The translations under genes and the position numbers were made by a program. A stretch of DNA of 64,000 nucleotides from the NCBI GenBank assembly GCA_965203055.1, contig OZ241863.1, positions 73,313 to 137,312 of the forward strand, written 5' to 3'. Below the pieces are notes generated by a model. The model worked only from the letters and a program-made list of their open reading frames with translations. It was not told the DNA's origin and ran no database searches. Positions 16,750 through 58,570 of this stretch are shown one piece after another (the stretch's first letter is position 1; the number at the start of each line of letters is the position of its first letter). The DNA is from Spirochaetia bacterium (GTDB lineage Bacteria > Spirochaetota > Spirochaetia > SZUA-6 > Bin103).

Positions 16750-16757
16750 GACTGCGG

Positions 16758-18377: not shown

Positions 18378-18557
18378 CTTTTACGCCGCGCATCATACGC
18401 GAACGATCGTGATTCGGCAAACAGGCGCAGGATCGGCACGGATCGGCACTGTGGGAAGCAACTGCCGGGGCCGACGGCGACTCCGCCTTGCGCCGGTGTG
18501 GCGCAAGCGGCGGGTGACGACCGAACGCCTCGACCGGGCACGTGATACGATGTCGGG

Positions 18558-20730: not shown

Positions 20731-20860
20731 CGGAAAGGGAGCGACAGGCACACGTGACGCGCAAGAAGCCGGCCAAGCGCCCGGACAACTACCGGCACCC
20801 GGAAGCCGGGGCGCTGCTGCGCCCGGACATCGGCACCCAGCCGCGCGCGGTATCTGACCC

Positions 20861-21796: not shown

Positions 21797-21847
21797 GATT
21801 GTCGGGTATGTAAGTTTGGTCACCCATTATGGGATACATAGAAGCCG

Positions 21848-22732
21848 ATGGACTCACCGAAGACACCGATTGACTTGTTCGGGCGCCCGGCGTACGTCCG
21901 GCCAAACGGGTCGCTGCTCAAGTGGATCGGCAACAAGTATAAGGTCGCAGAGGAGATTACCTCCTATTTCCCGGCCGAGATGCGGGCCTTCTACGACGTG
22001 TTTGTCGGCGGCGGTTCAATCCTGGCCACGGTAGCGCCGGCTCGCGGCGTGGGGTCGGACTCATTCGCGCCCTTGATCGAAATATGGAGCATGATTCGGT
22101 CCGATCCCGCTGTGGTCAAAGGGTGGTACGAGCAGCGCTGGCGGTATGCCATGTCGGGGGACCGCCGGGAGCGGTATGAAGAGATCAAGGCTTCATACAA
22201 CGCCCGGTCGAATGGAGCCGACTTCCTGTATCTCACCCGCGCTTGCTACGGCGGCGTCATCAGGTTCAGGAAGCATGACGGTTATATGTCCACGCCGGTG
22301 GGCATTCATCGGCCCATCGAGCCCCGCAACTTCGCCAAGCGGGTGGACGAATGGCACGTGAGAGTACAAGGCACCGAGTTTATTCGTGCCGATTATGCCG
22401 ACGTAATGGAACGCTGTGAGGCCGGAGATATGGTCTATTGCGACCCTCCGTATACCCACAGTCAAGCTATTTTGTATGGCGCCCAGGACTTCAGCATCGT
22501 TCAGTTGTTCGAGTCGATCGAACGCTGCAAGACGCGAGGTGTTCGCGTCGCCCTGAGCATCGATGGTACCAAGAAGTCCGGGAGTGAGAACTGCCATGTT
22601 CCCATACCGGAAGGGTTGTTCGAGCGGCAGATCCTGGTCAAGACCGGGAGATCGATGCTGCGGCGCTTTCAGATGGATGGCCAGACCCTGGAGTCGGAGG
22701 TCGTGGCGGATCGCCTATTGCTGACGTACTAA
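21848..22732 (+). CDS. Dam-class (D12, alpha-group) DNA N6-adenine methyltransferase
   Basis: KWIGNKY N-terminal motif, FVGGGS (motif I), VYCDPPY (motif IV). About 57% GC. Confidence 0.8.
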   Translation: MDSPKTPIDLFGRPAYVRPNGSLLKWIGNKYKVAEEITSYFPAEMRAFYDVFVGGGSILATVAPARGVGSDSFAPLIEIWSMIRSDPAVVKGWYEQRWRYAMSGDRRERYEEIKASYNARSNGADFLYLTRACYGGVIRFRKHDGYMSTPVGIHRPIEPRNFAKRVDEWHVRVQGTEFIRADYADVMERCEAGDMVYCDPPYTHSQAILYGAQDFSIVQLFESIERCKTRGVRVALSIDGTKKSGSENCHVPIPEGLFERQILVKTGRSMLRRFQMDGQTLESEVVADRLLLTY

Positions 22733-22750
22733 GCTCCTGATGGCGATCAG

Positions 22751-25102: not shown

Positions 25103-25649
25103 TCATCGCTGAACCGACCTCTCTGGTACGCATCCATACGACCGCATCGGGGTGGCCTGCGTGCGCTGAGAGCGCGCCCGGGAGAAGATCGTCATCGTCT
25201 GTCACAATGCCAACACAGGTCCGCGCCTGCGCCGCGGCATATAGCGCATCGCAGGCCAGCATGCCGTCTACCATTTTCTGTACGTAGCGGCGGTCGGTGC
25301 CGCTCCCGGTGGGAGGCCGCATCCGGCGCCGCACCGTGCCTCGCGGGTGAAACATCGGGAATTGGATCATCGAGGTGGCAAGCGCCGGACGGACGATCAG
25401 GCCATTGCGCCGGCCGCGCAGCACCGGCAGCAACTCATGCAGCCATGACGCATGGCGGCTCGGCCATCCCTGCTCAGTGATCCATCCTCCGTACAGCCGG
25501 AGATCGAGCTCGCGCGCGTCCGGGAACAGGGTTGCGAACGCGCGAGACACCTGCTCCACGATGGTCAGAGTAACGAGTTCCAGATCAGCTTTCGAGTTCT
25601 GGTCACGGCGGCGAAAATTGTACCAGTCGACAAGAGCCAGCCCTTGCAT
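25050..25649 (-). CDS. NYN/YacP-like (PIN-fold) nuclease domain protein
   Basis: 199 aa. N-terminal LALVDWYNF (the VDGYN-type motif of NYN/YacP) and a distal acidic cluster VGIVTDDDDLLPG. Overlaps the start of the STAND gene by 53 nt, giving the operon order NYN then STAND. Confidence 0.45.
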   Translation of the reverse strand: MQGLALVDWYNFRRRDQNSKADLELVTLTIVEQVSRAFATLFPDARELDLRLYGGWITEQGWPSRHASWLHELLPVLRGRRNGLIVRPALATSMIQFPMFHPRGTVRRRMRPPTGSGTDRRYVQKMVDGMLACDALYAAAQARTCVGIVTDDDDLLPGALSAHAGHPDAVVWMRTREVGSAMNDAALVSEGLTVHQLGS

Positions 25650-25793
25650 GAGTTACTACCCAACCCAATATACGACCTGGAGCGGGGGGTCAGCTTTGGG
25701 AAGCGGCCGGCCCGCCCGGTAGTGGTACGCGACGGGCCGGCTGCCGGTAATGGTGACGGAGGCGCTCCGGTTGCCGTTAGCCCACCCGCCTGA

Positions 25794-25877
25794 TGCCCGG
25801 AAGAGGACTCGAACCTCCACAGCCGTACGGCCACCAGACCCTGAACCTGGCGTGTCTACCAATTTCACCATCCGGGC
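25794..25877 (-). tRNA. tRNA-Leu (anticodon CAG)
   Basis: The reverse complement gives GCCCGGATGGTGAAATTGGTAGACACGCCAGGTTCAGGGTCTGGTGGCCGTACGGCTGTGGAGGTTCGAGTCCTCTTCCGGGCA: a long-arm class II tRNA with anticodon loop CTCAGGG. Its 3' end faces the low-GC islet. Confidence 0.85.
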
Positions 25878-25971
25878 AGGATGACGGTAACAACCTACCC
25901 CTGCCCGGCACTCCTGTCAAGACCTTGAGACGAGACGAGACGAGATCTGCGCCGCGCGGCGGGAGCGCCGG

Positions 25972-27639
25972 TCAGGCGGGGGCGGCGGCCCCCTGGCCGA
26001 CGGTATCGGTCGGGCCGGTGAAGCCGGGACCGCCGGCCGCCACGTAGCCGCGGCTGGCGCCGGAGCGGTCCGGGCTCACCCAGAAGGAGTACAGCGCCGC
26101 GTCGCGCAGGTGGAAGCGCAGCCGCACCGGCCGGCCCGCGAGTTCCGCCAGGCCGCCGGCATTGCCCCAGGTGACCGCCTGCCGGGTGGCATCGCCGGTC
26201 ACCGGCGCGCAGCGCTCGCGTGAGCAATGGCCGAGCGGGTTGCCGGCGGCGTCCAGCGCCTCCACCCGCAGCTCGCCGCCCGCCGCGGCGGCGTTGACGA
26301 ACAGGTGGCGGCCGCTGAAGCGCAGCGGGCGGGTGGTCAACGTGCCGCCGTCGGCGCCGGCCGCATGGGACACGAAGCCGTCGCGGCGCAGGGTCGCCAG
26401 GCCGGTGCTGCCGCCGGCGTACATGTGCGCGCCGAGCTTCGGCGAGACGCCGGAGAAGGCGCCGAAGTAGAGGTAGAGCCGGTCGCCGACGATCAGACAG
26501 CACCCGCCGCAGGAGTGGATGTAGTCGCGGTTCCAGTCGCCCGGCTGGTGGGTGCCGGCCACGATCGGCAGGCGGTCGCGGCGGTCGAAGTGGAACCCGT
26601 CCCGGCTGTAGCCCACCAGCAGCTCGGTGATCTTGGGAAACCCGCCGGCCTCGCAGATCTCGTTGGGCGGCCCGCGGTGGATCATGAAGAAACCCAGCAT
26701 GAGACTCTCGTAGCCCACGGCATCGATGTTGTAGAGCTGGGTCGGGTAACCGTGTTCCGGGGCCGGCGGGTCCAGATCGTCGGCGCCGGCCCAGTGGGCG
26801 ACTTGCTCCGGTTCCCAGGCGGCGCCGGCGAACAGGTCCGGGTGCTCGTGGTAGCCGCGCAGGCGCCCGACCGCCGGAGCGCTGGTGCGGATGCTGTATA
26901 CCCAGCGCTTGCGGAACGGGTTGTAGAAGATGGTGGTATTGTCGCCGCCGCGGCCGGTGGCGGCGCGTTCGCGCCAGTGGATGCCGTCCGCCGAGGAATA
27001 GACGTGGCCGCCCACCCACTCGTTGGCGGTGCCGGGGCCGCCCAGCTCGCCGTAGCGGAAGCCGGCGCCGCGCCGGCGGTGGTAGGCGAACATCTTGAAG
27101 CGTTCCGCGGCGCGCGCGGCCTCCTGATCGAGCCATACTCCGACGCCGTCCCGCTGATAGCTGGGCCGTAGCGGCAGCACCCGGTTGGTACCCGGCTCCA
27201 CGTCCAACTCCGGGCGCTCCCAATGCACGCCGTCGCGGCTGGTGGCCAACGCCACTCCGTCGAACCAGCCGGCGTGGTACCACAGCTTGAACAGCCCGTC
27301 CGCCGGATCGTAGAAGGCGCCGTCCTTGAATGGGCAGGCCGTGGGACACAGCCCGAAGTTCATTTCCAACGGGGTCTCCGGCACCAGCACCGGGCTTGCC
27401 TCGTGCAGCACCGGGGTATGGAACTCGCGCCGCAGGGAACTCTCGGCGATCAGAAACTCATCCACCAGGAGTTGCCGCCCCACGTCGATGGGGATCACCG
27501 CCGGCGGCCGCTCCAGGTAGGGGACCGGCCCCGGCTCCCGCGCCTCGCGCGCCAGCCCGCGCGGCGGCCACTCCGCAGGTTGCTCGATCCCGTTGTAGCT
27601 CACCGCGCCTGTTTCTCCCGTGCCTTCGCCGTTGCCCAT
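25972..27639 (-). CDS. Beta-propeller glycoside hydrolase-like protein (GH43/GH32/GH130-clan-like)
   Basis: 555 aa with repeated W/Y…D…G blades (WYHAGWF, YSSADGIHW, VGYSRDGFHF). The assignment is tentative. Confidence 0.3.
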   Translation of the reverse strand: MGNGEGTGETGAVSYNGIEQPAEWPPRGLAREAREPGPVPYLERPPAVIPIDVGRQLLVDEFLIAESSLRREFHTPVLHEASPVLVPETPLEMNFGLCPTACPFKDGAFYDPADGLFKLWYHAGWFDGVALATSRDGVHWERPELDVEPGTNRVLPLRPSYQRDGVGVWLDQEAARAAERFKMFAYHRRRGAGFRYGELGGPGTANEWVGGHVYSSADGIHWRERAATGRGGDNTTIFYNPFRKRWVYSIRTSAPAVGRLRGYHEHPDLFAGAAWEPEQVAHWAGADDLDPPAPEHGYPTQLYNIDAVGYESLMLGFFMIHRGPPNEICEAGGFPKITELLVGYSRDGFHFDRRDRLPIVAGTHQPGDWNRDYIHSCGGCCLIVGDRLYLYFGAFSGVSPKLGAHMYAGGSTGLATLRRDGFVSHAAGADGGTLTTRPLRFSGRHLFVNAAAAGGELRVEALDAAGNPLGHCSRERCAPVTGDATRQAVTWGNAGGLAELAGRPVRLRFHLRDAALYSFWVSPDRSGASRGYVAAGGPGFTGPTDTVGQGAAAPA

Positions 27640-28004
27640 ATCCGCTTCGCTTCCTCCTCGGTGACTTCGGTGCCGTCGAACACGAACGGCTTGCGCCGCT
27701 GCATCTTGGCCACCACCTGATCCAGCACTTCATGCGCCGCGAAGTAGCCGCTACGTTCCGCCAACAGCGCGCAGACTACGACGTCCCACAGCAGATCGCC
27801 AAGTTCCTCGCGGAGATTCTCGTGGTCGCGGTTGGCGACCGCGAGCAGTACCTCGTCGGCTTCGGCGCGCAGCTCCGCCGCGTACTGCTCCACGGTGCGC
27901 GTCGTGGTCCACGGGCAGCGGGCCAGCACCTTGCGCGCCGCGGCCGCCAGTTCCACAAAGCTCTCCGTCACGAGTCGTTCGCTCATCTGGAATCTCATCA
28001 TCAT
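27600..28004 (-). CDS. MazG-like nucleotide pyrophosphohydrolase domain protein
   Basis: Start at MMMRFQ. EELGDLLWDVV and ExxE motifs typical of MazG/NTP-PPase all-alpha proteins. Confidence 0.65.
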   Translation of the reverse strand: MMMRFQMSERLVTESFVELAAAARKVLARCPWTTTRTVEQYAAELRAEADEVLLAVANRDHENLREELGDLLWDVVVCALLAERSGYFAAHEVLDQVVAKMQRRKPFVFDGTEVTEEEAKRIWATAKAREKQAR

Positions 28005-28059
28005 TATATGCTGCGGCTGCCGGCTCCGCATCGGAGCCGCTGCCCGCCGCCGGCGGTGA

Positions 28060-28581
28060 ATGAATGGACCCGGTCGATTCGGCCGTGGTATGACCCACGG
28101 CGTGGAGCAGCTCCCAATGATCTCCCTGCGCGTCAACGGCGCGGCGCGCCGCGTGCCGGCGCCGCCCGACACCCCGTTGCTGCTGGTGCTGCGCAACGAC
28201 CTGCAGCTCGGCAGCCCCAAGTACGGCTGCGGCGCGGAGCAGTGCGGGGCCTGCATGGTGCTGATCGACGGCAACGCGGCGCCCACCTGCCGGCTGCCGG
28301 TGAGCGCCGCCGCGGGGCGCGAGATCGTCACCGTCGAAGGGCTGGCGCCGGGCAGCGCCCTGCACCCGGTTCAGCAGGCGTTCATCGACGGCAACGCAGT
28401 GCAGTGCGGCTACTGCGCGAGCGGCGTAATGATTGCGGGCGCGGCGCTGCTGGCGCGCAACCCGACGCCCACGCGGGCCGAGATCCAGGCGGCCCTGGAC
28501 CGCAACATCTGCCGGTGCGGGGCGCACAACCGCATGATCGCCGCGCTCCGGCGGGCCGCGGCCGCCGCGGCCGCGGACTGA
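28060..28581 (+). CDS. (2Fe-2S)-binding small subunit of a molybdopterin-dependent oxidoreductase (CoxS/IorA-like)
   Basis: CGxGxCGACxV and CGYC cysteine clusters. A possible true start is at MISLRVNG (about 28117). Confidence 0.8.
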   Translation: MNGPGRFGRGMTHGVEQLPMISLRVNGAARRVPAPPDTPLLLVLRNDLQLGSPKYGCGAEQCGACMVLIDGNAAPTCRLPVSAAAGREIVTVEGLAPGSALHPVQQAFIDGNAVQCGYCASGVMIAGAALLARNPTPTRAEIQAALDRNICRCGAHNRMIAALRRAAAAAAAD

Positions 28582-39861: not shown

Positions 39862-39931
39862 TCGGAGCCGGGGCGCCGGCCGGCGCCCTTGGCGCGGCGC
39901 GGCGCAATCTTCATAATGCCGGAGAGCGGCG

Positions 39932-40543
39932 ATGAAGGGGTTGACGATCCGCCAGCGCGAGGTGTATGAGTTCATCGAAGGGTTCATCCGGCACAAGTAC
40001 CCGCCGACGGTGCGCGAGCTCGCCGGCCACTTCGCCATTTCCGTCAGAGCGGCGCACGATCATCTCAAGGCACTGAAGAAGAAGGGCTTCATCCGCTGGG
40101 ACGAGGGCCGGTCGCGGTCCATCGAGTTGCTTGACGCCGTCAGTCCCGCGCCGCCCCCGGAGCTGATAACGCGCGTTCCCTTGCTGGGCATCGTGGCGGC
40201 CGGGGTTCCGGTATTTGCCGACGAGAACTTCGAGGGCAGCGTGGTAATAGCCAGCGAGCTGCTCGGTTCCGGCGATCACTTCGCGTTGCGCGTGCAGGGG
40301 GACAGCATGAACGACGCCGGCATCCTCGACGGCGACATCGCCGTCATCCACCGCCAGCAGCATGCCGACAACGGCGACATCGTGGGAGTGATGATCGATC
40401 AGAAGGCGACCCTGAAGCGGTTCTTCCTGGAAGCCAACCGGGCCCGCCTGGAGCCGGCGAGTCGCAACCGCAGCCACCGGACGATATTCACCCGCGAACT
40501 CAGAATCCTCGGCAAGCTCCGGGTGGTGCAGCGGGTCTATTGA
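39932..40543 (+). CDS. lexA: LexA repressor
   Basis: N-terminal wHTH, Ser-Lys dyad context (VQGDSMNDAGI … KRF). Confidence 0.85.
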   Translation: MKGLTIRQREVYEFIEGFIRHKYPPTVRELAGHFAISVRAAHDHLKALKKKGFIRWDEGRSRSIELLDAVSPAPPPELITRVPLLGIVAAGVPVFADENFEGSVVIASELLGSGDHFALRVQGDSMNDAGILDGDIAVIHRQQHADNGDIVGVMIDQKATLKRFFLEANRARLEPASRNRSHRTIFTRELRILGKLRVVQRVY

Positions 40544-41616
40544 TGCCGTCCGGGACGAAGCGTACGCGGCGCGGCGCCAGCTCGCGCCGCGCCGCGCCGG
40601 CGCGCCGGGACGGCAGCCTGAGCGGCGGCGTACATCTCCTGCTCGGCCCGGAGGCGGGCCGCAAACGCGCCTTCGTGGAGCAGATCGCGGCGGCCGCCCA
40701 AGCGCGCCACGGCAACGTCGAGGTGCGGCGCGCCTTCCCCTACGACAACGACCTGATCGATCTGGTCGCCACCCTGCGCACGCCGGGATTGTTCGCCGCC
40801 CATCAAGTCGTAGTGCTGCAGGAGGCGCAGGATCTGCGCGCCGGCAACCAGCTTGCCGCGCTGGCGGCGTACTGCCAGGAGCCGGCCGCGGCCAGCACGC
40901 TGGTCATGACGGCCAACGGCATGGCGCGCGACCTGCCGGCCGCCCTGACCCGCGCCGTGGGCAAGGAACGCACCAGAGTCTTCTGGGAAATGTTCGACAA
41001 CGAGAAGCAGGGCTGGCTGCTGCACTTCTTCCGCAGCCGGGACATTCGCATCGACGCCGCCGCCTGCGCCCTGATCCTGGAACTGGTGCCGGCCGACGTT
41101 GCCTCGCTCGACGCGCTGTGCGGCAACCTGGCCAGCTTCTTCGGCGCCGGCGCCGCCATCTCGGCGCCGGACATCGAACAGTTCCTCTACCACAGCAAGG
41201 AAGAGACCGTGTTCTCGCTGTTCGACCGGGTAGCGGAACGCGACCTGCAGGGCTGCCTGGAGACGGTGACGACGCTGCTCCTGTCGCGCCGCGGCGATGC
41301 GGTGCAGATCATCGGCGTGCTGCTGAGTCAGTTCCAGCGTCTGACCCAGCTCAAGGAGCTGCTGGCGGAGCGTACTTCCGAGGCGGCCGCGCTGCAGAAG
41401 TTGCGCATCACCGGCAAGCGCCTGCAACACACCTACCAGGAGGCTCATCGCCGCTACCCGGACGCGGCGATGGAGCCGATCTACCGCCTGCTGGTCGAGT
41501 TCGACACGCGCGCCCGCCTCCTCAGCCAGGAGTTGTCCGAGCCGCTGCTGCAGCTCCTGCTGTATCATGTTGTCGCGCGAGGCGGGCAAGGAGTGTGGCG
41601 GCCGTTTCGCGTGTAA
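40540..41616 (+). CDS. holA: DNA polymerase III subunit delta
   Basis: 358 aa with the delta-subunit pattern (LLLGPE…, AAA-lid-like helices). ATGA overlap with lexA. Confidence 0.7.
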   Translation: MMPSGTKRTRRGASSRRAAPARRDGSLSGGVHLLLGPEAGRKRAFVEQIAAAAQARHGNVEVRRAFPYDNDLIDLVATLRTPGLFAAHQVVVLQEAQDLRAGNQLAALAAYCQEPAAASTLVMTANGMARDLPAALTRAVGKERTRVFWEMFDNEKQGWLLHFFRSRDIRIDAAACALILELVPADVASLDALCGNLASFFGAGAAISAPDIEQFLYHSKEETVFSLFDRVAERDLQGCLETVTTLLLSRRGDAVQIIGVLLSQFQRLTQLKELLAERTSEAAALQKLRITGKRLQHTYQEAHRRYPDAAMEPIYRLLVEFDTRARLLSQELSEPLLQLLLYHVVARGGQGVWRPFRV

Positions 41617-43426
41617 TCCCGGCGCGGGAGGCGATCGTCTCCGGCGACTCGGCCAGGAGCGCCTCCACCGAGCCGAACACCTCCAGCAGGCGGCGGCTGC
41701 GGGCGCGGCCGATGCCGTGCACCGATTCCAGCAGCGACAGACCGACGCGCTTGCTGCGCAAGCGGCGGTTGAAGCCGGTGGCGAAGCGGTGGGACTCGTC
41801 CCGGGCGCTCTGCAGCACGCGCAACGCCGGCGAAGTGGCGGGCAGGAGCACCGGATGGGAGCGGCCCGGCAGGAAGATCTCTTCGTTGCGCTTGGCCAGT
41901 CCGGCGACCGGCAGGTGGTCCAGTTCGAGGGCGCGCAGGATGCGCACCGCGGCGCTTACCTGCCCCTTGCCGCCGTCTACCAGCACCAGGTCGGGCAATG
42001 GGCGGTTGTCGTTGACCAGGCGGGTGTAGCGCCGCGCCACTACCTCGCGCATGGCCGCGAAGTCGTCCACCTGGTCGCCCAGGGTGCGCAGTTTGAAATG
42101 CCGGTAGGACTGCTTTTCCGGGCTGCCGTCCACGAACACCACCAGCGAGGCCACCGTGTCGCGACCCTGCAGGTGGGAGATGTCGAACGCCTCGATGCGG
42201 CGCGGCGTGGCATCCAGTTGCAGCGCGTCACGCAACGCTTCGAGGGCGCTGAGCTTCGCGTCGCGGTCGGCGCGCTGCTGTTCACCGGTCTCCCAATCCA
42301 CGCGCGCGTTGTGCTCCGCAAGGCGCAGGAAGCGGGCGTGCTTGCCGCGTTGCGGCACCTTCACGTGCAGCCGCGCCGGCCGCCGCCCGGCGGCAGGAGC
42401 GGCCGCATCGCCGCGGTCCGCGCCGCCGCCGGGCGCAGGGCCAAGCACGGTACGGTCGAGAGCGCGCTGCAACAGCTCCGCGGCCGCCGCCGGCAGGCGC
42501 AGGAACACGCTGCGCGGGCGGGTCTGGATGCCGGCGTAGTACTGGAGCAGAAAGCTAGGCAGCACCTCCTCAGGCGGCGCCGTATCCAGCAGCCGGAAGC
42601 GCTCCTTGCCGAGTAGCTGGCCGTGGCGGACCGGCAACAGGGTGACGGTGTAGTGGGCGCCGTCCTGGTGGCAGCCCACGTAGTCGCGCGCCTCCCGCGA
42701 GAAGTCGACCACGTCCTGTTCGCTGTCGACCACCTCGCCGATCGCGCGGATCCGGTCGCGCAGCTCGGCGGCGCGCTCGAAGCGCAGCGCCGCGGCTTCC
42801 TGCTGCATCAGGGCGCGCAGCTCGCGGATCAGCTCGGCGCTGTTGCCGGTAAGCAACTTGCGCACCGCGGCCACCCGCCGCTGGTACGCCGGGGCGTCGA
42901 TGTGGCCGACGCAGGGCGCCGCGCAACGCCCGATATGGTAGTTCAGACAAGGCTGGTCGCGGCGCTTGAACACCTCGCCGCGCTTGCGCAGGGGAAACAG
43001 CTTGTCGATCAAGGTAAGGTAGACGTCGATCCGGTTGACCTTGGGAAAGGGACCGAAGTACTCGGAGCCGTCGAGCACGATGGTGCGGGTGCGGAACACC
43101 TTCGGGTATTCCTCATTGGTCAAGCGGATGACGGGGTAGGACTTGCCGTCCTTGAGATTGATGTTGTAGCGCGGGGCGCGGTCCTTGATGAGCGAGTTCT
43201 CCAACAGCAGCGCCTCGAACTCGCTGTGGGTGACGATCACCTCGAAGTCCGCCACCCGGCTGACCAGCACGAGGGTCTTGAGATCGCGCGCCGCGCCCGC
43301 CCCCCCGGCATTGAAGTAGGTCCCGACCCGAGCCCGCAGGTTCTTGGACTTGCCCACGTACAGCACCTGACCGCGGCGGTCCTTGAGCAGGTAGACGCCG
43401 GGCGCGCGCGGCAGCTCCCGCGCCAT
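41522..43426 (-). CDS. uvrC: Excinuclease ABC subunit C
   Basis: GIY-YIG N-terminus (GVYLLKDRRGQVLYVGKSKNLRARV), UvrBC and RNase H-like/HhH C-terminus. Start chosen at MARELP. Confidence 0.9.
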   Translation of the reverse strand: MARELPRAPGVYLLKDRRGQVLYVGKSKNLRARVGTYFNAGGAGAARDLKTLVLVSRVADFEVIVTHSEFEALLLENSLIKDRAPRYNINLKDGKSYPVIRLTNEEYPKVFRTRTIVLDGSEYFGPFPKVNRIDVYLTLIDKLFPLRKRGEVFKRRDQPCLNYHIGRCAAPCVGHIDAPAYQRRVAAVRKLLTGNSAELIRELRALMQQEAAALRFERAAELRDRIRAIGEVVDSEQDVVDFSREARDYVGCHQDGAHYTVTLLPVRHGQLLGKERFRLLDTAPPEEVLPSFLLQYYAGIQTRPRSVFLRLPAAAAELLQRALDRTVLGPAPGGGADRGDAAAPAAGRRPARLHVKVPQRGKHARFLRLAEHNARVDWETGEQQRADRDAKLSALEALRDALQLDATPRRIEAFDISHLQGRDTVASLVVFVDGSPEKQSYRHFKLRTLGDQVDDFAAMREVVARRYTRLVNDNRPLPDLVLVDGGKGQVSAAVRILRALELDHLPVAGLAKRNEEIFLPGRSHPVLLPATSPALRVLQSARDESHRFATGFNRRLRSKRVGLSLLESVHGIGRARSRRLLEVFGSVEALLAESPETIASRAGITRETAATLLARLARQHDTAGAAAAARTTPG

Positions 43427-43556
43427 CCGCGGCAGATCGGCCGTTGCCGTGTCGCCAACACCCATTGGGTAGTAGTATAGTATGGCGGGTGCGCGCGATC
43501 TGTGGCATACTGGTTTGACGGGACGTGGCGGCGGCTTGGCGCGCGGTCCCGGCCGC

Positions 43557-43629
43557 GGGGGATTAGCTCAGGTGGTAGAGCGATTGGTTCGCAATCAATA
43601 GGTCAGGGGTTCGAGTCCCCTATCCTCCA
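43557..43629 (+). tRNA. tRNA-Ala (anticodon CGC)
   Basis: GGGGGATTAGCTCAGGTGGTAGAGCGATTGGTTCGCAATCAATAGGTCAGGGGTTCGAGTCCCCTATCCTCCA. Cloverleaf with anticodon loop TTCGCAA and a G3-U70 pair typical of tRNA-Ala. Confidence 0.85.
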
Positions 43630-43644
43630 AGGAGGCCCCACGCC

Positions 43645-44196
43645 GTGATCGTCTCCCAGGAGACGTTGCGGGAGCTCATGGCCAGCGGCGCGGTAGTCGT
43701 CGCGCCGCTGGCGCCGGATCAGTTGCAGCCCGCCTCCATCGACCTCACCTTGGGCGACCACTTCCTCAAGGTAGACGAGAACGCCGTCGACCGCATCACC
43801 CTGGACGCAGAGTTGCGCTACGTCCCGCTGCACACCGAGGAGATCGTGATTCCCCCGCTCTCGTTCCTGCTCGCCGTCACCCGCGAGCGGATCAAGCTGC
43901 CGCACGACATTACGGCGTTCGTCGAGGGCCGCAGCTCCATCGGGCGGCTGGGACTGTTCATTCAGAATGCCGGCTGGGTGGATCCCGGCTTCGACGGCAC
44001 CCTTACCCTGGAGCTGTTCAACGCCAACCGGCTCCCCATTCGACTGCGCGCCGGCCGGCGCATCTGCCAGATCGTATTCGCCCAACTGGACCGCAGCACC
44101 GGTCATCCCTACCGCGGCAAGTACCAGCATCAATCGAGCGCCGTCGGCAGCCGCATCCACCTCGACCGGCAAGCGCCGGCGCCGGCCGACGCCTGA
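43645..44196 (+). CDS. dcd: dCTP deaminase
   Basis: 183 aa with the dUTPase-like fold. GTG start. Confidence 0.8.
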   Translation: MIVSQETLRELMASGAVVVAPLAPDQLQPASIDLTLGDHFLKVDENAVDRITLDAELRYVPLHTEEIVIPPLSFLLAVTRERIKLPHDITAFVEGRSSIGRLGLFIQNAGWVDPGFDGTLTLELFNANRLPIRLRAGRRICQIVFAQLDRSTGHPYRGKYQHQSSAVGSRIHLDRQAPAPADA

Positions 44197-50965: not shown

Positions 50966-52051
<1,086 letters not shown>

Positions 52052-52171
52052 GACGCACCCTCAGAGTAACGATGCGGCGCCGCCGCGGTCAAACCCCGCC
52101 AGCCTCCCCCATCCCCACCGCCGCCGGTTCACCCCGCGCTTTGTGGGCACGAGCTGTACTCCCCGGATCCC

Positions 52172-52200
52172 TTGACCAAGTTGGCTCTATTTCCTATCGT
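52172..52200 (+). promoter_or_regulatory. Putative sigma-70-type promoter of the higB-higA operon
   Basis: TTGACC, 17 nt spacer, TATCGT, about 37 nt upstream of the higB ATG in an AT-richer spacer. Confidence 0.35.
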
Positions 52201-52236
52201 GCTACTTGAGTTGATTTCGGGAGCGAAGTATATTGA

Positions 52237-52530
52237 ATGAGAATTATCGCCAAGAGGACGTTGCGGGAGTTCTGGGAGCGTCACCGGGACTCGGAACCTC
52301 CGTTGCGCGCTTGGTATCAGGAAGTCGCGCGAGGGGATTGGGATACGCCGGCCAAGTTGAAGACGCGGTATCCGAGCGCCAGCATCGTCGCCGGCAACCG
52401 CGTGGTGTTCAACATCAAGGGCAATACCTACCGGCTGGTAACGAAGATCAACTATCGATACCGCGCCGTCTACGTGCGGTTCCTGGGAACCCACGCCGAG
52501 TATGACGCCGTGAACGTGGAGGAGGTGTGA
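52237..52530 (+). CDS. higB: HigB-type toxin (E. coli K-12 HigB-like, RelE/ParE superfamily)
   Basis: 97 aa. …VVFNIKGNTYRLVTKINYRYRAVYVRFLGTHAEYD closely parallels E. coli HigB (…YVFNVGGNELRVV…YIREVMTHKEYD). The toxin-first gene order matches higBA. Confidence 0.7.
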   Translation: MRIIAKRTLREFWERHRDSEPPLRAWYQEVARGDWDTPAKLKTRYPSASIVAGNRVVFNIKGNTYRLVTKINYRYRAVYVRFLGTHAEYDAVNVEEV

Positions 52531-52531
52531 G

Positions 52532-53746
52532 ATGGCCGAGGTCAAGCCGATCCGGACCGAGGCGGGCTATACGGCCGCGCTCGCCCGGGTCGACGAGCTG
52601 ATGGACGCCGAGCCAGGGACCCCGGAAGGCGAGGAACTCGATGTGCTGGTTGACTTGGTGGAGTTGTACGAGAGCAAGCACGTGCCGATGGAGTATCCGA
52701 GCCCCATCGCCGCGCTCGAGTTCCGCATGGAGCAGGCGGGGTTGGCACCGCGCGATCTGGTCCCTTACCTCGGCAGCCGCGCCAAAGTGGCGGAAGTGCT
52801 CTCCGGCAAGCGCGCAATCACCATGCCGATGGCGCGCGCCCTCCATCGGCATCTGGGAATACCGGCCGAGGTGCTGCTGCGCGAGCCAACTGCAATCGCC
52901 GAGCAACCGTTGGCGAACATCGAATGGAGCCGCTTTCCTCTCAGGGAGATGGCCAAGCGGCAGTGGATTCCGGATCTCCCTGACCTCGCGCAGCGGGCGG
53001 AAGCGCTGGTCGGCGATTTGATCAAGCGCTCCGGCACCCGGCAGGTGGCTCCTGTCGGTCTGTACCGCAAGAACGACCGCCTCCGTACCAACGCCAAGAC
53101 CGATTGGTATGCGCTCCAGGCGTGGTGCTGGCAGGTGTTGGCGTCGGCGAATCGGAATCCGCCGACGACGAAGTACGCGCCGGGCACGGTCACCTTGGAG
53201 TTCCTCGGACAGGTCGCACGGCTGAGTCGTGAGGAGGAGGGCCCGCGTCTTGCCCACGAGTTCCTGGCAACCCACGGCATCCCGCTGGTCGTCGAACGGC
53301 ATCTGCCGCGCACCTATCTCGACGGAGCGGCGCTCCGTCTCGGCGGCCGGCCGGTGGTCGCTCTGACCCTGCGCTACGACCGCATCGACGGCTTCTGGTT
53401 CTGTCTGCTGCACGAGCTGGCGCACGTTGGCCGCCACCTGGACCACGATGTCGGCGCCGCCTTCGTCGACGACCTGTCACTGCGCAAGCCGGATGGGACA
53501 GCCGAAGACCGGCGCGAGGCGGAGGCGGACGAATGGGCCGCGGAGGCGCTCATCCCGGGCTCGGTCTGGGAAGCGAGCGCGGTGAGGAATGAGCCGACAC
53601 CGCTGGCGGTCATGGGCTTGGCCCAACGCCTGCAGATTCATCCGGCCACGATTGCCGGCAGGGTCCGGTACGAGCGCCGGAACTATCGGCTGCTGTCCCA
53701 ATTCGTCGGCACCGGTAAGGTCCGCCGACAATTCGGCATTACATAA
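52532..53746 (+). CDS. higA: HigA-type HTH antitoxin fused to an ImmA/IrrE (DUF955, HEXXH) metallopeptidase domain
   Basis: The N-terminal about 120 aa aligns by eye with E. coli HigA (…LGSRAKVAEVLSGKRAITMPMARALHRHLGIP versus IGSKSMVSRVLSGKRKLTLEHAKKLATRFGISP). The C-terminal about 280 aa carries LLHELAHV…E…EADEWAAEALIP, the ImmA/IrrE zinc-peptidase signature. Confidence 0.65.
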   Translation: MAEVKPIRTEAGYTAALARVDELMDAEPGTPEGEELDVLVDLVELYESKHVPMEYPSPIAALEFRMEQAGLAPRDLVPYLGSRAKVAEVLSGKRAITMPMARALHRHLGIPAEVLLREPTAIAEQPLANIEWSRFPLREMAKRQWIPDLPDLAQRAEALVGDLIKRSGTRQVAPVGLYRKNDRLRTNAKTDWYALQAWCWQVLASANRNPPTTKYAPGTVTLEFLGQVARLSREEEGPRLAHEFLATHGIPLVVERHLPRTYLDGAALRLGGRPVVALTLRYDRIDGFWFCLLHELAHVGRHLDHDVGAAFVDDLSLRKPDGTAEDRREAEADEWAAEALIPGSVWEASAVRNEPTPLAVMGLAQRLQIHPATIAGRVRYERRNYRLLSQFVGTGKVRRQFGIT

Positions 53747-54348
53747 ACGGTCTGAGGGCGGGCAGGCGCCGGTGGCCTGCAGTTGGCGTCGAGGGTAGTC
53801 GCTAGAGCTCAGCTCGCTGGGGGTGCGCCCGACTGCGGGCATGACGGCGCGGCGGAGGGCGGGGAGCAGCGCCTGCAGGTAGCGGGCCACCGTGCGGTGG
53901 TCGGCCAGCACCCGGCCCACGCCGTCGTCGATGAGGGCGCGCACGGGGAGCGGCGCCGCGGCCGGTACTTCGTGCCGGTCGAGCACGCGCGGCGCGCCGT
54001 GCGGGGTGACCAGCACGTCCACCCACAGGTCGCGCCAGGCGAAGCGGCCGGCGGCCAGCGTCACTTGGTCGCAGATGTTGAAGTAGAGCGCGCGCGGAGC
54101 GGTCAAACCGGGCGCCATCCAGGCGTACAGGTTGTAGGGGCGGTCCTCCCAGAACAGGCCGAAGGTTACCGTGCCGCGCGGCAGATGGATGCCGCCCGGA
54201 TCGTAGGCGCGGTCGCTGACGAAGTGCAGAACGCCGTGGCCCGGGCGCAGCAGCAGCAGGCGGGCGCGGAACCGGTTGCGGCGCCCGTCGGGGTAGCGCT
54301 TCTCCTCGTAGCACCAGCGCGGGTAGCCGCGGCCGGTCACGGGCGCCA
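53477..54348 (-). CDS. DUF402 (FomD-like nucleoside-phosphatase-fold) domain protein; 3' end uncertain
   Basis: …YFNICDQVTLAAGRFAWRDLWVDVLVTPHGAPRVLDRHE matches the DUF402 motif (Y.N…DL.LDV.V.PDG…LDEDE). Start at MAPVTG overlaps the atl stop. The frame stays open to 53477, which would place about 270 nt antisense over higA. Confidence 0.4.
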
Positions 54349-54693
54349 TTGGCTGGCGGCCAGATCGAGGCGCCCCGCGCCGTCGACCGCAACCCCTTCG
54401 GCCAGCAGCAACGCGCGTTGCCGTTCCAGCCCGTTGCCCGGCGGCAGGCGAATGACGCCGCCGGCGCCGATCACGCGATGCCAGGGCAGCGCGCGGCCGG
54501 CGTAGACCCGCAACGCCCAGGCCACTTGGCGCGCCGCCCGCGGATTCCCGGCCTGCGCCGCTACCTGACCGTAGGTGGCAACCCGCCCGCACGGGATCGC
54601 CGCCACCACCCCGGCGATGCGCTGCAGCAGACCTTCCGCCGCCGCAGGCGCGGAGCGGCTCGGCGCGCCGGCGCCGGCAACGTGCGCCGCCAC
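54337..54693 (-). CDS. atl: Alkyltransferase-like protein (Atl; MGMT-fold DNA-binding domain with Trp replacing the active-site Cys)
   Basis: 118 aa. PWHRVIGAGG in place of the MGMT PCHRV, as in E. coli Atl/YbaZ. Confidence 0.7.
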   Translation of the reverse strand: MAAHVAGAGAPSRSAPAAAEGLLQRIAGVVAAIPCGRVATYGQVAAQAGNPRAARQVAWALRVYAGRALPWHRVIGAGGVIRLPPGNGLERQRALLLAEGVAVDGAGRLDLAASQWRP

Positions 54694-54696
54694 GGG

Positions 54697-55509
54697 TCAG
54701 CGGTCGACCGGATCCTTGAGGCGAACCATGATGCGTTGCCGGAGGCGGTCCCGCTTCACCTCGAAGGCGTCGTTGCGCGCGGCGATGATCTTGACCAGCT
54801 TGGAGGAGCCGTAGGTGCGCGGGTCGAACGCCGGGTCCAGCTTCTTGAGGTTGTTGGCGATCTTGCGCAGGTCGACCCACGCCGACTCCTGATCCACCAT
54901 CTCATGGGCCTCGGTGACGATGGAGATCAGGTCGGCGTCGACGCTGGCATCCTCGATCCCCATACTGCCGTTCGGACCCGGATCGCCGGCCGCCGGCTCG
55001 GGAGTCGCGCCGGCCGGGTTGTCGCGCCGCCGCGGCCGCCGGCGCCGGTCGCCCTCGTAGCTCTTCATGATGTTCTCGACGTAGCGAAACTCGTTGCAGG
55101 CGTTGACGAACGGCTTCGGGGTATGGTGCTTGCCGATCCCGACCACCTCCATTCCCGCCTCCCGCAGACGAATCGCCAGCTTGGTATAGTCGCTGTCGCT
55201 GGAGACGATCACGAATCCGCCGACGTGATCGCTGTAGAGGATATCCATGGCGTCGATGATCATCGCCGAGTCGGTGGCGTTCTTGCCGACCGTGTTGCGG
55301 AACTGCTGGATCGGCTGAATGGCGTGTACCGGGAGCTTCTTCTTCCACGAGTCGAGCTGCGGCGTGGTCCAGTCGCCGTAGATCCGGCGAATGGTGACCA
55401 CACCGAACTTCACGACTTCCTTCATGACGTGTTCGATTTGCGAAGCCTGCGCGTTGTCGCCGTCGATCAGGACGGCCAGACGGCGCTCGGCGCTAATGGT
55501 TGGACTCAT
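54697..55509 (-). CDS. NYN-domain nuclease with C-terminal OST-HTH/LOTUS domain
   Basis: N-terminal LAVLIDGDNA … VIVSSDSDYTKL (NYN motifs). C-terminal about 70 aa (…LISIVTEAHEMVDQESAWVDLRKIANNLKKL…) resembles an OST-HTH winged helix. Confidence 0.6.
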   Translation of the reverse strand: MSPTISAERRLAVLIDGDNAQASQIEHVMKEVVKFGVVTIRRIYGDWTTPQLDSWKKKLPVHAIQPIQQFRNTVGKNATDSAMIIDAMDILYSDHVGGFVIVSSDSDYTKLAIRLREAGMEVVGIGKHHTPKPFVNACNEFRYVENIMKSYEGDRRRRPRRRDNPAGATPEPAAGDPGPNGSMGIEDASVDADLISIVTEAHEMVDQESAWVDLRKIANNLKKLDPAFDPRTYGSSKLVKIIAARNDAFEVKRDRLRQRIMVRLKDPVDR

Positions 55510-56140
55510 ATGAGGTTCCTCGAGGTGTTGGTATTGGTATGTGGTGACCGGCGGCCGGGCGCGCAGCCGCGGTCAGCTCGGCGAAGCGGAAGCAGTCGAT
55601 CAGGTGGTCGTTGACCACTCCCACCGCCTGCAGATGGGAGTACACGATGATGGGTCCCACGAAGCGAAAGCCGCGCGCTCGCAGGTCTCGGCTCACCCGC
55701 CGCGACAGTTCGGTTGCGGCCGGAACGTCGCCGGCGGCGCGCCACCCGCCCACCACGGGTTGGCCGTCGACGAAGCGCCACAGATAGGAGCAGAAGCTGC
55801 CGAACTGCTCCTGCACGGCGAGAAAGGCGCGCGCGTTGTCGATCGACGCCGCCACTTTCAGCCGGTTGCGCACGATGGCCGGGTTGGCGAGCAGCGCCGC
55901 CTGCTCGGCCGCGCCGTAACGCGCCACCCTGGCTACCTCGAAATCCTGGTAGGCGCGCCGATATCCGGCGCGCTTATGCAGGATGGTGCGCCAACTCAAC
56001 CCCGCCTGCGCCCCTTCCAGCACCAGAAACTCGAACTGCAGGCGGTCGTCCTCCCACACCGGCGTACCCCATTCGGCGTCGTGGTAGGCGCGCATCGACT
56101 CGTCTCCGGCGCACCAGTCGCAACGGCGGCGCCCGCCCAT
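55493..56140 (-). CDS. tag: DNA-3-methyladenine glycosylase I
   Basis: 215 aa with the zinc-binding C…C…H…C pattern, YHD.EWG and …WRF… typical of Tag. Confidence 0.8.
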   Translation of the reverse strand: MGGRRRCDWCAGDESMRAYHDAEWGTPVWEDDRLQFEFLVLEGAQAGLSWRTILHKRAGYRRAYQDFEVARVARYGAAEQAALLANPAIVRNRLKVAASIDNARAFLAVQEQFGSFCSYLWRFVDGQPVVGGWRAAGDVPAATELSRRVSRDLRARGFRFVGPIIVYSHLQAVGVVNDHLIDCFRFAELTAAARPAAGHHIPIPTPRGTSYESNH

Positions 56141-56913
56141 CAGCCGGCGCCCCCCTCACGGTCGCCGGCCGCGGCATGGCGGTTGATCAGCTCCGTGTTC
56201 ACCGTACCCGCGGCGCGATCGATGAACGCCGCCAGCGCGGCCACGCGGTGGTCGCGATCGAGCAGGTCCCACAGTTCCCGCACCGCCTGCCGCGGGGTGG
56301 CGCCGAGCGGCAGGAGAAACGGCTCGCCGGCGAACGGCGGCAGCGGCGCGCCGTCGCCCTCGTAGGTAGTGATGCAGTGCCCCCAACCGGGACGCGGGCT
56401 GCGGTAGGTGAAGTGCTGGAAGCTCACCTGCCGCGGGTCGCCGGCGACGGTCTTGATGATGGCCAGTTGATAGCCCCCGCGGCCGCCGGCGGCAACCACG
56501 CCCGCAATGCGCGGCGTGTAGTGGGGCGGGTCCGGCTCCACGTCCCGGCGCGCGAAGGCGGCGGCGAAGGAGTCGCCGGCCGTCATCCCGGCGGCGATGG
56601 TCTCCGTATGGTCGCCGTTGCCGACCACGTGCGCGGCGCGGCCGGCCTGCGCGGTACGGGCGACCGCAGTCGCCCGATACAGAATGAGGCTGTCGCCGCC
56701 GTCCTGCGGCGCCGCGCCGGCCGCCGCCACGACCCGCACCGCGCCGCCGCGGTCCCGGACGAAGCGCCGGTTCCGGCTGCGGTCGCTGCGCCCCATGATC
56801 CAATATAGCTGCACGCCGGCGGCCCCGTCCGCGCTGCAGCCGACCACGAGGCCGCGCCCGGGATAGGCGGTCCGCGCCAGCCAGGCGCGGTCTTTGCCTA
56901 CCCCGGCTAGCAT
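56140..56913 (-). CDS. IMP cyclohydrolase PurO-like family protein
   Basis: Start at MLAGVGKD. …GRGLVVG…LYWIMGRSDRSRNRRF resembles the archaeal-type PurO signature. Overlaps the tag start. Confidence 0.45.
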   Translation of the reverse strand: MLAGVGKDRAWLARTAYPGRGLVVGCSADGAAGVQLYWIMGRSDRSRNRRFVRDRGGAVRVVAAAGAAPQDGGDSLILYRATAVARTAQAGRAAHVVGNGDHTETIAAGMTAGDSFAAAFARRDVEPDPPHYTPRIAGVVAAGGRGGYQLAIIKTVAGDPRQVSFQHFTYRSPRPGWGHCITTYEGDGAPLPPFAGEPFLLPLGATPRQAVRELWDLLDRDHRVAALAAFIDRAAGTVNTELINRHAAAGDREGGAG

Positions 56914-56957: not shown

Positions 56958-58364
56958 ATGGGATTGGGGAGCGGTTACCGTCGCGCCGTGAGCGAGCACG
57001 GCGCCTTCGAGGCGGCCGCCGAACGCCTGCTGAGCCTGACCGACCTGCGCCGCGGCAGCGCTCAGGGCGACCGCCGGCGCTACCGCGCGCCGCGCATGCG
57101 CGCCTTGCTGGAACGGTTGGGGAACCCTCACCTGGCGGTTCCCACCATCCACGTCGCCGGCACCAACGGCAAGGGCACCACCGCGGCAATGCTCGCCTCG
57201 ATTCTGAGCAGCGCGGGCCTGCGCGCCGGCCTGTTCACCTCGCCCCATCTTCACTCCCTGGTGGAACGCATCCGGGTAGGCATGAGTCCCATCAGCCGCG
57301 CGCAGTTCGCCGCCCGGTTCGCCCAGGTCTGGCCCGCGGCGCAAGCGGTCGCCCGCTACTCCGGGTTGCCCGGCCCGGCGGCCCAGGTCACTACGCTCGA
57401 ACTGTTGACGGCGATGGGGTTGCATCACTTCCGTGAGGTAGGGGCGGCGTACCAAGTCATCGAGGCGTTCGTCGGCGGCCGCGACGACACTACCAATATA
57501 GTGCAGCCGGTACTGTCCGTAATCACCAACATCAGCCGCGATCACGTCCCGGCGCTCGGCCGCACGCTGGTCGATATCGCCCGCGCCAAGGCCGGCATCA
57601 TCAAACCGGGGGCGGCGGTCGTGGCGGCGCCGCAACTTCCCTCCGTGCAGGCCGAGCTGGAACGCGCGGCGCACCGCCGGGGGGCGGCGCTGGAGGCGGT
57701 TGCGAGCGTGCCGGCGCCGCCCGCCGCCAACCCGTTGGCGCAGTCGCAGCAGCACCTGCGCTGGCGGGGGCGCCATGGCGAGTACCGCGTGGCGCTGCCG
57801 TTGCGCGGTGCGGTACAGCGCGAAAACGCTGCCGTAGCCATTACCGCCGCGGAACGGTTGATCGATCTCGGCGCGCCACTGACCAGTGCGGACATCCGGC
57901 GCGGGCTGGAACGGGTCACCTGGCCGGCACGGTTCGAACTGCTGCAGCGGCAGCCGGTGCCGGTAGTGGCCGACGGCGCCCACTGCCCGCACGCCATGGC
58001 GCGGCTGGTGGCCGAGCTGCGGCTGGTGCGGCCGCGGCCGCGGCTGCACGCGCTGGTCGGCGGCCAGCAGGGTCACGACGCCGGCGCAACGCTGCGCCTC
58101 CTGCACCCGCTCGCGGACTCGGTCACCGCGGTCCGCTCGCGCCACCCGCGCGCCCTGCCGGCCGCCGAGCTGGCGGCCGCGCTGCAGGCGGCAGGCATCG
58201 CCGCGCGGGCCAGCGAACTCCCGGTAGCGGACACCCTGCGGGAGTTGCTGGCCGCGGCCGCCGGCACCGACCTGGTGCTTGCCACCGGCTCACTGGCGGT
58301 CGCCGCGGAAGCGCGTGAGGCGCTCTTCCCGGCGATCGCCGCCGATCGCTATCCCGCGGCCTGA
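56958..58364 (+). CDS. folC: Bifunctional folylpolyglutamate synthase/dihydrofolate synthase
   Basis: P-loop HVAGTNGKGTT, Mur-ligase-type domains. The true start may be an internal GTG. Confidence 0.8.
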   Translation: MGLGSGYRRAVSEHGAFEAAAERLLSLTDLRRGSAQGDRRRYRAPRMRALLERLGNPHLAVPTIHVAGTNGKGTTAAMLASILSSAGLRAGLFTSPHLHSLVERIRVGMSPISRAQFAARFAQVWPAAQAVARYSGLPGPAAQVTTLELLTAMGLHHFREVGAAYQVIEAFVGGRDDTTNIVQPVLSVITNISRDHVPALGRTLVDIARAKAGIIKPGAAVVAAPQLPSVQAELERAAHRRGAALEAVASVPAPPAANPLAQSQQHLRWRGRHGEYRVALPLRGAVQRENAAVAITAAERLIDLGAPLTSADIRRGLERVTWPARFELLQRQPVPVVADGAHCPHAMARLVAELRLVRPRPRLHALVGGQQGHDAGATLRLLHPLADSVTAVRSRHPRALPAAELAAALQAAGIAARASELPVADTLRELLAAAAGTDLVLATGSLAVAAEAREALFPAIAADRYPAA

Positions 58365-58390: not shown

Positions 58391-58570
58391 TCAGATTATG
58401 TCGGTGTCACGCACCGTCTTGCGCTTCGCCTTGCGGGCGTTCTCCACGGCCTCGTCACACACCTTGCGTACTTTCTCCGACAGCGCCTCGGCCACCGAGG
58501 CCGCCGTGTTCATTCCCGCGTCTTTGATGTAGCTCTTGACCTTGGAAGTAACTATCAAGATTTCTGCCAT
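58391..58570 (-). CDS. DUF1931-family small histone-fold-like protein
   Basis: 59 aa, MAEILIVTSKVKSYIKDAGMNTAASVAEALSEKVRKVCDEAVENARKAKRKTVRDTDII. Lower GC than the surroundings. Confidence 0.4.
   Translation of the reverse strand: MAEILIVTSKVKSYIKDAGMNTAASVAEALSEKVRKVCDEAVENARKAKRKTVRDTDII

Follow-up and report, generated by a model that had tools for sequence, protein, structure and literature searches.

We analyzed a cluster of five minus-strand genes (56913 to 53477) within 64,000 nucleotides (nt) of a Spirochaetia bacterium genome (GCA_965203055.1, contig OZ241863.1, positions 73,313 to 137,312; this whole stretch is hereafter the window), and found it likely to be a clade-specific operon of mixed housekeeping genes, not a module dedicated to alkylation damage. 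The five co-directional open reading frames (ORFs) encode, in order, a PurO-like protein, the DNA-3-methyladenine glycosylase Tag, a NYN-LOTUS protein, the alkyltransferase-like protein Atl, and a DUF402 protein. Their Pfam domain content matches the labels given in a first-pass annotation of this DNA. That annotation also took the gene mix as a hint that alkylation repair is coupled to the clearance of alkylated RNA or nucleotides. This interpretation gained no support from comparison: the conserved block extends into unrelated flanking genes, purM interrupts the cluster in most relatives, tag and atl are variable, and no such linkage was found among the loci sampled outside the clade.

The five genes form a compact, tight operon-like unit. 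The first encodes the PurO-like protein (56140..56913, 257 amino acids (aa); PF07826, bacterial-type IMP cyclohydrolase-like), and is followed by tag, for a DNA-3-methyladenine glycosylase I (55493..56140, 215 aa; PF03352), by a "MARF1-like" gene joining a NYN (PIN-like nuclease) to an OST-HTH/LOTUS domain (54697..55509, 270 aa; PF01936 and PF12872), by atl, which starts with GTG and lacks the codon for the reactive cysteine (54337..54693, 118 aa; PF01035), and by the DUF402 gene, whose conserved part covers codons 1–179 (53813..54349; PF04167) and runs on into a non-homologous read-through tail (53477..53812, ~110 codons) that is partly antisense to the neighboring gene. Upstream, across a divergent intergenic region of 44 bp, lies a folC-like Mur-ligase gene (56958..58364, plus strand; PF08245 and PF02875 matches); the downstream syntenic neighbor is trpS (50966..52051, minus strand; PF00579, 259 bits).

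According to the first-pass annotation, every junction in the cluster overlapped by 1–17 nt. Read from the DNA, this holds for purO and tag, which share TGATG with a 1-nt overlap at 56140, for tag and NYN-LOTUS (17 nt, 55493–55509), and for atl and DUF402 (13 nt with ATG 54349, or 4 nt, GTGA, with GTG 54340), but NYN-LOTUS and atl do not overlap and are separated by 3 nt (TGA-CCC-GTG). The spacer between the NYN-LOTUS stop and the atl GTG is CCC in the window (54694–54699) and CC both in the other strains, as in L001 (10811–10815), and in L086 (12225–12229), and the window alone has the two genes in one frame; an assembly error or a real homopolymer polymorphism could account for the difference. 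With gene calls for seven loci (the window's species and six relatives), 20 of the 31 junctions within the cluster measured ≤5 nt, compared with 11 of the 65 same-strand ones flanking it; because the loci are related to each other, the Fisher p of 6e-6 serves only as a guide. From this spacing, tighter than that of the flanks, we infer that the genes are probably co-transcribed and translationally coupled, in agreement with the first-pass annotation. Since 4-nt overlaps also link unrelated neighbors, e.g., htpG and a glycosyltransferase gene, overlap alone is no sign of shared function.

Promoter and terminator scans, both uncalibrated for the host phylum, returned no sigma-70 consensus-like site within the cluster or in the 44 bp between folC and purO, and two weak terminator-like matches in the cluster at chance level. 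The only sigma-70-like sites of the scanned region were located upstream of a HigB-like gene (52172–52234). An Rfam scan of the whole window detected no riboswitch or leader upstream of the operon and two tRNAs elsewhere, and upstream regions from seven clade members, once aligned, were conserved only in the folC start region (TGTAAAGG), with no clear regulatory motif. The window has four matches to the Gram-positive-type LexA box (GAACN4GTTC), all of them away from both the cluster and lexA, and thus uninformative.

Next, we read the neighborhoods of PurO-like and DUF402 homologs of falling identity, using gene calls and a tblastn check. The order in the window, purO-tag-NYN-atl-DUF402, is shared by its closest relative L086 (PurO-like identity 81%). 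L087 (71%), L093 (66%), and L089 (64%) have purO-tag-NYN-purM-atl-DUF402, while L088 (66%) and L131/L132 (two contigs of one sample; 62%) have purO-NYN-purM-atl-DUF402 and no tag. L134, with a guanine-plus-cytosine (GC) content of 43% and its upstream flank not covered, reads tag fragment-NYN-purM-DUF402-trpS-htpG, with no atl. NYN-LOTUS and DUF402 are therefore present in 8/8 clade architectures, purO wherever the upstream flank is covered, and purM in 6/8, while two relatives lack tag (L131/L132 counted once), one lacks atl, and the window and L086 lack purM. The same loci carry folC (divergent), aroA, rpmE, an ion-channel gene, a small histone-fold gene, trpS, htpG, and the glycosyltransferase gene in the same order; folC keeps its divergent position in all clade relatives with a covered upstream flank, and trpS follows DUF402 in clade relatives including L134. 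Because these flanking genes are equally syntenic, what is conserved is a whole chromosomal segment and not the five genes specifically.

The additional gene between NYN-LOTUS and atl in most relatives is a genuine purM, scoring 270 and 266 bits with TIGR00878 (cut-off 236). The junction TGACCGTG precedes purM in L087 (12275–12290), and precedes atl in L086 (12220–12235) and in L001. In the lineage of the window and L086, purM appears to have been precisely excised, a deletion that would have left atl directly behind NYN-LOTUS.

Outside the clade, we inspected 80 NYN-LOTUS loci from species-representative genomes (43–56% identity, mostly Chloroflexota, Aminicenantes, and Bacillota) over a 10-kb range, and 37 Atl-anchored metagenome loci (38–67% identity); here and below, counts for both sets apply to the matches listed. 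None of the 80 NYN-LOTUS loci had tag, purO, purM, or trpS within 10 kb, two had weak Atl/Ogt-like matches 5–10 kb away, and one, L006, had DUF402. In L006 (NYN-LOTUS 56%, DUF402 46% identity) the two genes lie 2.4 kb apart, with a MOSC gene and an opposite-strand proS between them; this contig (CATQHW010000003.1) is labeled "uncultured Spirochaetia" and has 71% GC. For the clade itself, TrpS finds its nearest named relatives, at ~75% identity, in Anaerolineales and in a "Spirochaetaceae" metagenome-assembled genome, so that an affinity to Chloroflexota is probable, although either this placement or the Spirochaetia-type labels may be in error. None of the 37 Atl loci, many of them on short contigs, had any partner gene. 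Three out-of-clade PurO-like loci (40–44% identity) had unrelated neighbors, and a DUF402 gene at 42% identity (L092) had no partner gene within 8 kb. The first-pass annotation was right to call the gene mix unusual, as it was not found outside one uncultured clade in the sampled loci. It had also proposed gene order in related genomes as a check, with scattered orthologs counting against the coupling: within the clade the order is kept and the orthologs are not scattered, and outside it no linkage was found in the sampled loci.

Taken together, these patterns suggest an older backbone of purO-like, NYN-LOTUS, purM, and DUF402 genes between folC and trpS-htpG, on which tag and atl would be individually dispensable passengers, and from which the window lineage would have neatly deleted purM. 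Transcription would probably start in the short folC-purO divergent region, with translation coupled from stop to start. Each product would most likely do its own family's job independently. Going by family membership, the PurO-like protein would convert FAICAR (5-formamidoimidazole-4-carboxamide ribonucleotide) to inosine monophosphate (IMP) in purine synthesis, Tag would excise 3-methyladenine, Atl would bind O6-alkylguanine and pass the lesion to nucleotide excision repair, the NYN-LOTUS protein would be an endoribonuclease with a G-rich-RNA-binding domain, and the DUF402 protein a Mg-dependent nucleoside di/triphosphatase or a small RNase. The gene identities, intact motifs, junctions, and distribution among relatives are observed here; co-transcription, what each enzyme does, and the lack of any functional coupling between them are inferred.

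Several observations weigh against a mixed housekeeping operon. The cluster is clearly more tightly packed than its surroundings, and its order is kept from 43% to 70% GC, a survival for which selection for co-expression could be responsible. Every clade architecture includes both NYN-LOTUS and DUF402, and the out-of-clade NYN-LOTUS closest to that of the window among the matches listed also has DUF402 2.4 kb away, so that some functional tie between these two is possible. By family, purine lesions or purine nucleotides are the targets of three products, a coincidence of theme that we do not set aside. Finally, the out-of-clade loci are samples and not censuses, with many short contigs in the Atl set.

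The two repair proteins are bona fide members of alkylation-repair families, as the first-pass annotation had proposed, judging by domain scores, zinc positions, and the PWHRV motif. Tag matches the Adenine_glyco domain (PF03352) at 241.8 bits against a cut-off of 25, over profile positions 1–176 of 177, and aligns to Salmonella TAG (2OFI) over residues 2–180 (E 2e-48) with RCDW, YHD (AYHD), and NDHxxxC conserved. All zinc-ligand positions, which we take to be Cys4, His17, His175, and Cys179 of E. coli TAG, are kept, but only with ATG 56140 as the start codon. In public gene calls tag begins 45 nt downstream of this site (200-aa form); the 2OFI alignment, however, extends up to residue 2 and takes in the RCDW cysteine near the N terminus, so the overlapping 56140 start is the right one. 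Tag scores below the NCBIfam cut-offs (188.5 against 232.5 bits for TIGR00624, and 169.7 against 349 bits for the PRK10353 equivalog), which on sequence grounds makes it a divergent family member rather than a non-member. Atl matches DNA_binding_1 (PF01035) at 75.8 bits over residues 24–101 of 118. Its PWHRV motif, in which Trp replaces the reactive Cys, is present in the window and in 6/6 clade relatives with atl, and its nearest solved structures are Vibrio vpAtl (2KIF, E 6e-16) and S. pombe Atl1 (3GVA, E 1e-11). In L131 (10925–11797) the Atl homolog was called as 290 aa, with a ~120-residue Gly/Ser/Thr/Ala-rich insertion after PWHRV that splits the domain and may be real or an assembly or calling artifact.

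With a genuine and apparently active Tag and Atl, the cluster could be read as an integrated alkylation-damage operon, in which these two proteins act on DNA, the NYN-LOTUS protein degrades alkylated RNA, and the DUF402 and PurO-like proteins sanitize alkylated purine nucleotides. The acidic residues of NYN and the putative metal triad of DUF402 are intact (see below), the genes are tightly packed and probably translationally coupled with an order kept within the clade, and uvrC and lexA lie 10–14 kb away in the window. We nevertheless judge this reading improbable: the rest of the cluster persists in the relatives that lack tag or atl, most relatives have purM in mid-cluster, and the cluster encodes no Ada-type regulator, AlkB, AlkA, or AidB. 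In addition, neither Atl nor NYN-LOTUS is linked to the other genes outside the clade among the matches listed, the PurO-like gene fits the purine-synthesis pattern of bacterial PurO, and between the cluster and uvrC and lexA lie unrelated genes, namely those for citrate synthase, a two-component system, and the glycosyltransferase, plus htpG and trpS.

The two genes found in every clade architecture encode proteins with conserved candidate active sites. NYN-LOTUS combines PF01936 (125 bits, residues 10–144) with PF12872 (42 bits, residues 190–258), and its LOTUS part matches the bacterial LOTUS structures 2KPM and 2KZV. Residues D16, D80, D86, D89, D105, and D107 are invariant across 15 sequences of 48–95% identity and would include the catalytic residues of the PIN-like active site. 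To our knowledge, no cellular role has been assigned to bacterial NYN-LOTUS proteins. Bacterial LOTUS domains bind G-rich RNA and RNA G-quadruplexes in vitro (PMC7498356). The DUF402 match (PF04167) is marginal, at 28.3 bits against a gathering threshold of 23.9; an NCBIfam scan gave no match, and neither did a PDB search with the single sequence, for which a profile or model was needed. An AlphaFold model (predicted local distance difference test score, pLDDT, 90.6) matched RNase W (8RZA), FAU-1 (8WO8), Sa1684/Ntdp (7D8G; template modeling (TM) score 0.70), FomD (5ZDM), and SC4828 (3CBT) with Foldseek probability 1.00, the RNase W and Ntdp subgroups about equally. Residues N91, D107, and D111 are conserved in at least 90% of sequences and form a candidate metal site, with the same 16/4 spacing as N404, D420, and D424, which bind Mg in PfRNase W. 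The Asn/Asp/Asp Mg site of PfRNase W is universally conserved in the family, which comprises nucleotide phosphatases and, in archaea, the RNase W DUF402 domain as a proven RNase, while an RNA-metabolism role for stand-alone bacterial DUF402 proteins has been left open (PMC11602121).

These data bear on a second alternative, namely a module of RNA and purine-nucleotide homeostasis in which NYN-LOTUS and DUF402, with purO and purM, would balance RNA turnover against purine supply, and tag and atl would be co-expressed passengers. We consider it unlikely, although it is the alternative to which we give most weight. NYN-LOTUS and DUF402 are the sole genes shared by all eight architectures, accompanied by purO wherever the flank is covered and by purM in six, the fold of the model is about equally near to the proven archaeal RNase and to Ntdp, and L006 brings the two genes together outside the clade. 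However, the MOSC gene and opposite-strand proS mean that the L006 genes are not one operon, and L006 may be a sister lineage with residual synteny. The other 79 NYN-LOTUS loci among the matches listed have neither DUF402 nor purM, the DUF402 of L092 has no NYN partner, and no gene fusions were found among 35 DUF402 or 120 PurO-like homologs.

The PurO-like protein matches IMP_cyclohyd (PF07826) at 120.1 bits against a cut-off of 28.1. Its single sequence found no match in the PDB, for which a profile was needed, and its homolog profile matches archaeal PurO MTH1020 (2NTK) at E 1.6e-10. It scores below the archaeal PurO equivalog cut-offs of NCBIfam (37.1 against 150 and 28 against 158 bits), and would belong to a divergent bacterial PurO branch. 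ATG 56913 is the sole start upstream of the conserved YPGRG motif. No pur gene besides the PurO-like one, purM included, was found in the 64-kb window. We know of no experimental demonstration of bacterial PurO activity. Bacterial PurO homologs have been described, with a pairing of purV/purO to genomes lacking the IMPCH domain of PurH, and bacterial purO genes often adjoin other pur genes (PMC6486802). Given this literature, the true purM in the cluster of relatives, and the adjacent folC, a role in purine biosynthesis is the simpler one, and the PurO-like protein is best read as a putative purine-biosynthesis enzyme. A broader "purine-lesion" module can be imagined, with Tag and Atl acting on DNA purines, NYN-LOTUS removing alkylated G-rich RNA, DUF402 hydrolyzing alkylated purine nucleotides or RNA fragments, and purO, purM, and folC refilling the pool; we rate it a shade less probable even than the integrated alkylation-damage operon.

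The first-pass annotation placed the cluster end at 53477, which is the end of a read-through ORF; the conserved DUF402 stops near 53813, and by comparison with relatives the operon proper ends there. In the strain relatives L001–L003, NYN-LOTUS is identical to that of the window and DUF402 is 181 aa long with a normal stop. The window DUF402 is identical to theirs through codon 179 and then diverges; their stop at codon 182 is lost, and no in-frame stop follows until 53477, ~110 codons on, yielding a 290-aa ORF whose final 270 nt are antisense inside the 3′ end of the convergent gene 52532–53746. DUF402 proteins of relatives end at ~170–190 aa and have no counterpart of the tail, with the exception of P0141, an extended DUF402 of 290 aa (90% identity) on a 15-kb contig of another assembly. 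Because divergence and loss of the stop coincide with a variable hotspot, the DUF402 stop was evidently clipped by a rearrangement.

This hotspot occupies the interval between trpS and DUF402, and its content differs in every relative, i.e., it is hypervariable (spans: window 52052–53812, L001 11706–13793, L087 14196–20380, L088 13917–16988, L131 12334–13304). In the window it holds, on the plus strand, the HigB-like toxin gene (52237–52530; PF09907 HigB_toxin 1e-31, PADLOC PD-Lambda-2_A 2e-41) and a gene for a 404-aa helix-turn-helix (HTH)/ImmA-IrrE-like protein (52532–53746; weak Peptidase_M78 match, PADLOC PD-Lambda-2_B 8e-138). By these matches, 52237–53746 is a PD-Lambda-2 A/B-like defense pair outside the operon; no third PD-Lambda-2 component was identified in the window. 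In relatives the interval variously contains genes for Type II N6/N4 methyltransferases, PD-Lambda-2 A/B copies that are complete or decayed, a PIN gene, a YbjN-like gene, or ORFs of unknown function. With a hypervariable spot of PD-Lambda-2-like, methyltransferase, and PIN genes directly downstream, and a rearrangement there that clipped the DUF402 stop, the cluster itself might be mobile or defense-island cargo acquired with the adjacent toxin/peptidase and methyltransferase genes. This is the least probable of the alternatives, and we give it almost no credence: the GC content of the cluster equals that of its surroundings (~69% for the window), its position between folC and trpS is fixed in all relatives across 43–70% GC, and variability starts only past the DUF402 stop. 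PADLOC matched 0/5 of the cluster proteins, and a defense-island origin of the five genes was rejected on that count.

Elsewhere in the window, a gene for a small histone-fold protein (58391–58570, minus strand; CBFD_NFYB_HMF, 28.6 bits; 59 aa as called in relatives) lies between folC and the ion-channel gene, a position conserved across the clade. Other repair or nucleotide-hygiene genes are lexA (39917–40543, plus), uvrC (41522–43567, minus), a dCTP deaminase-like gene (43645–44196, plus), and a MazG pyrophosphohydrolase gene (27600–28370, minus), none of which adjoins the cluster. A low-GC stretch at ~21800–25900 (55–61% against ~69%) looks like a defense or mobile island: it contains genes for a D12-class adenine methyltransferase (21848–22732, plus) and a 783-aa NACHT/AAA-like NTPase (22751–25102, minus) and an unknown 199-aa ORF, adjoins a tRNA (25794–25877), and is preceded by AAA_15/AAA_21 ATPase genes (16758–18380 and 20858–21796) and an AAA-ATPase/PD-(D/E)XK gene (15001–16899). 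At the left end, a DUF4143 protein gene cut by the window edge (2–637, plus) and a gene for a HepT-like toxin-domain protein (990–1553, plus) may form another toxin-antitoxin or defense locus.

If the ordinary reading is right, the cluster is a cautionary case, in that start/stop overlaps and within-clade synteny alone do not show shared function. The comparative data reverse the first impression, with the repair genes becoming the add-ons and the "odd" genes the backbone. Both orphan enzymes that this clade retains next to each other, the stand-alone DUF402 and the bacterial NYN-LOTUS protein, would be tractable candidates for biochemistry, and the locus provides a further example of a bacterial PurO homolog in a pur-gene context.

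Among known systems, the Ada operons of E. coli and relatives (ada-alkB, alkA, aidB) likewise place several alkylation-repair functions under common expression. By domain content, however, the five genes here include no Ada regulator, methyl-accepting cysteine, AlkB, AlkA, or AidB; Tag and Atl are constitutive, non-suicide players, and nothing points to inducibility. The window Tag resembles the constitutive Tag of E. coli and Salmonella (1LMZ, 2OFI) in its full-length Adenine_glyco domain and conserved Cys/His positions, but ends in a Pro/Ala-rich tail of ~30 aa whose coding sequence overlaps the following gene, and sits in an operon with unrelated genes; E. coli tag is not known to belong to a cluster of this kind. 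As in other Atl proteins (S. pombe Atl1 3GVA, vpAtl 2KIF, E. coli YbaZ/eAtl, T. thermophilus TTHA1564), Atl is a ~110-aa single domain corresponding to the C-terminal DNA-binding domain of O6-alkylguanine-DNA alkyltransferase (AGT), and shares with S. pombe Atl1 the Trp in place of the PCHRV cysteine. It differs from them in a 20-aa Ala-rich N-terminal extension and in the probable translational coupling of its gene to DUF402, a linkage seen nowhere else among the matches listed.

The NYN-LOTUS protein follows the bacterial "MARF1-like" proteins TP0894 and NE0665 in having one NYN nuclease domain, then one minimal LOTUS/OST-HTH domain; unlike them, it joins the two domains by a low-complexity linker, rich in Arg and variable in length, and in the 80 other genomes such genes are not next to tag, atl, purM, or purO among the matches listed. 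The DUF402 protein shares the fold of solved family members (7D8G, 5ZDM, 3CBT, 8RZA, 8WO8; TM up to 0.70) at only 10–19% identity, and its conserved form is, like S. aureus Ntdp, stand-alone and ~180 aa long, whereas the window ORF carries a 110-codon non-homologous tail. Lastly, the PurO-like protein falls far under the archaeal PurO equivalog cut-off (37 against 150 bits), but shares PF07826 with MTH1020 (2NTK), with a profile match spanning the N-terminal half and most active-site residues. Like other bacterial PurOs, it has Gly/Ser at the Ser24/Ser26 positions, as reported (PMC6486802), and in relatives its gene stands in a purM context, just as many bacterial purO genes adjoin pur genes.

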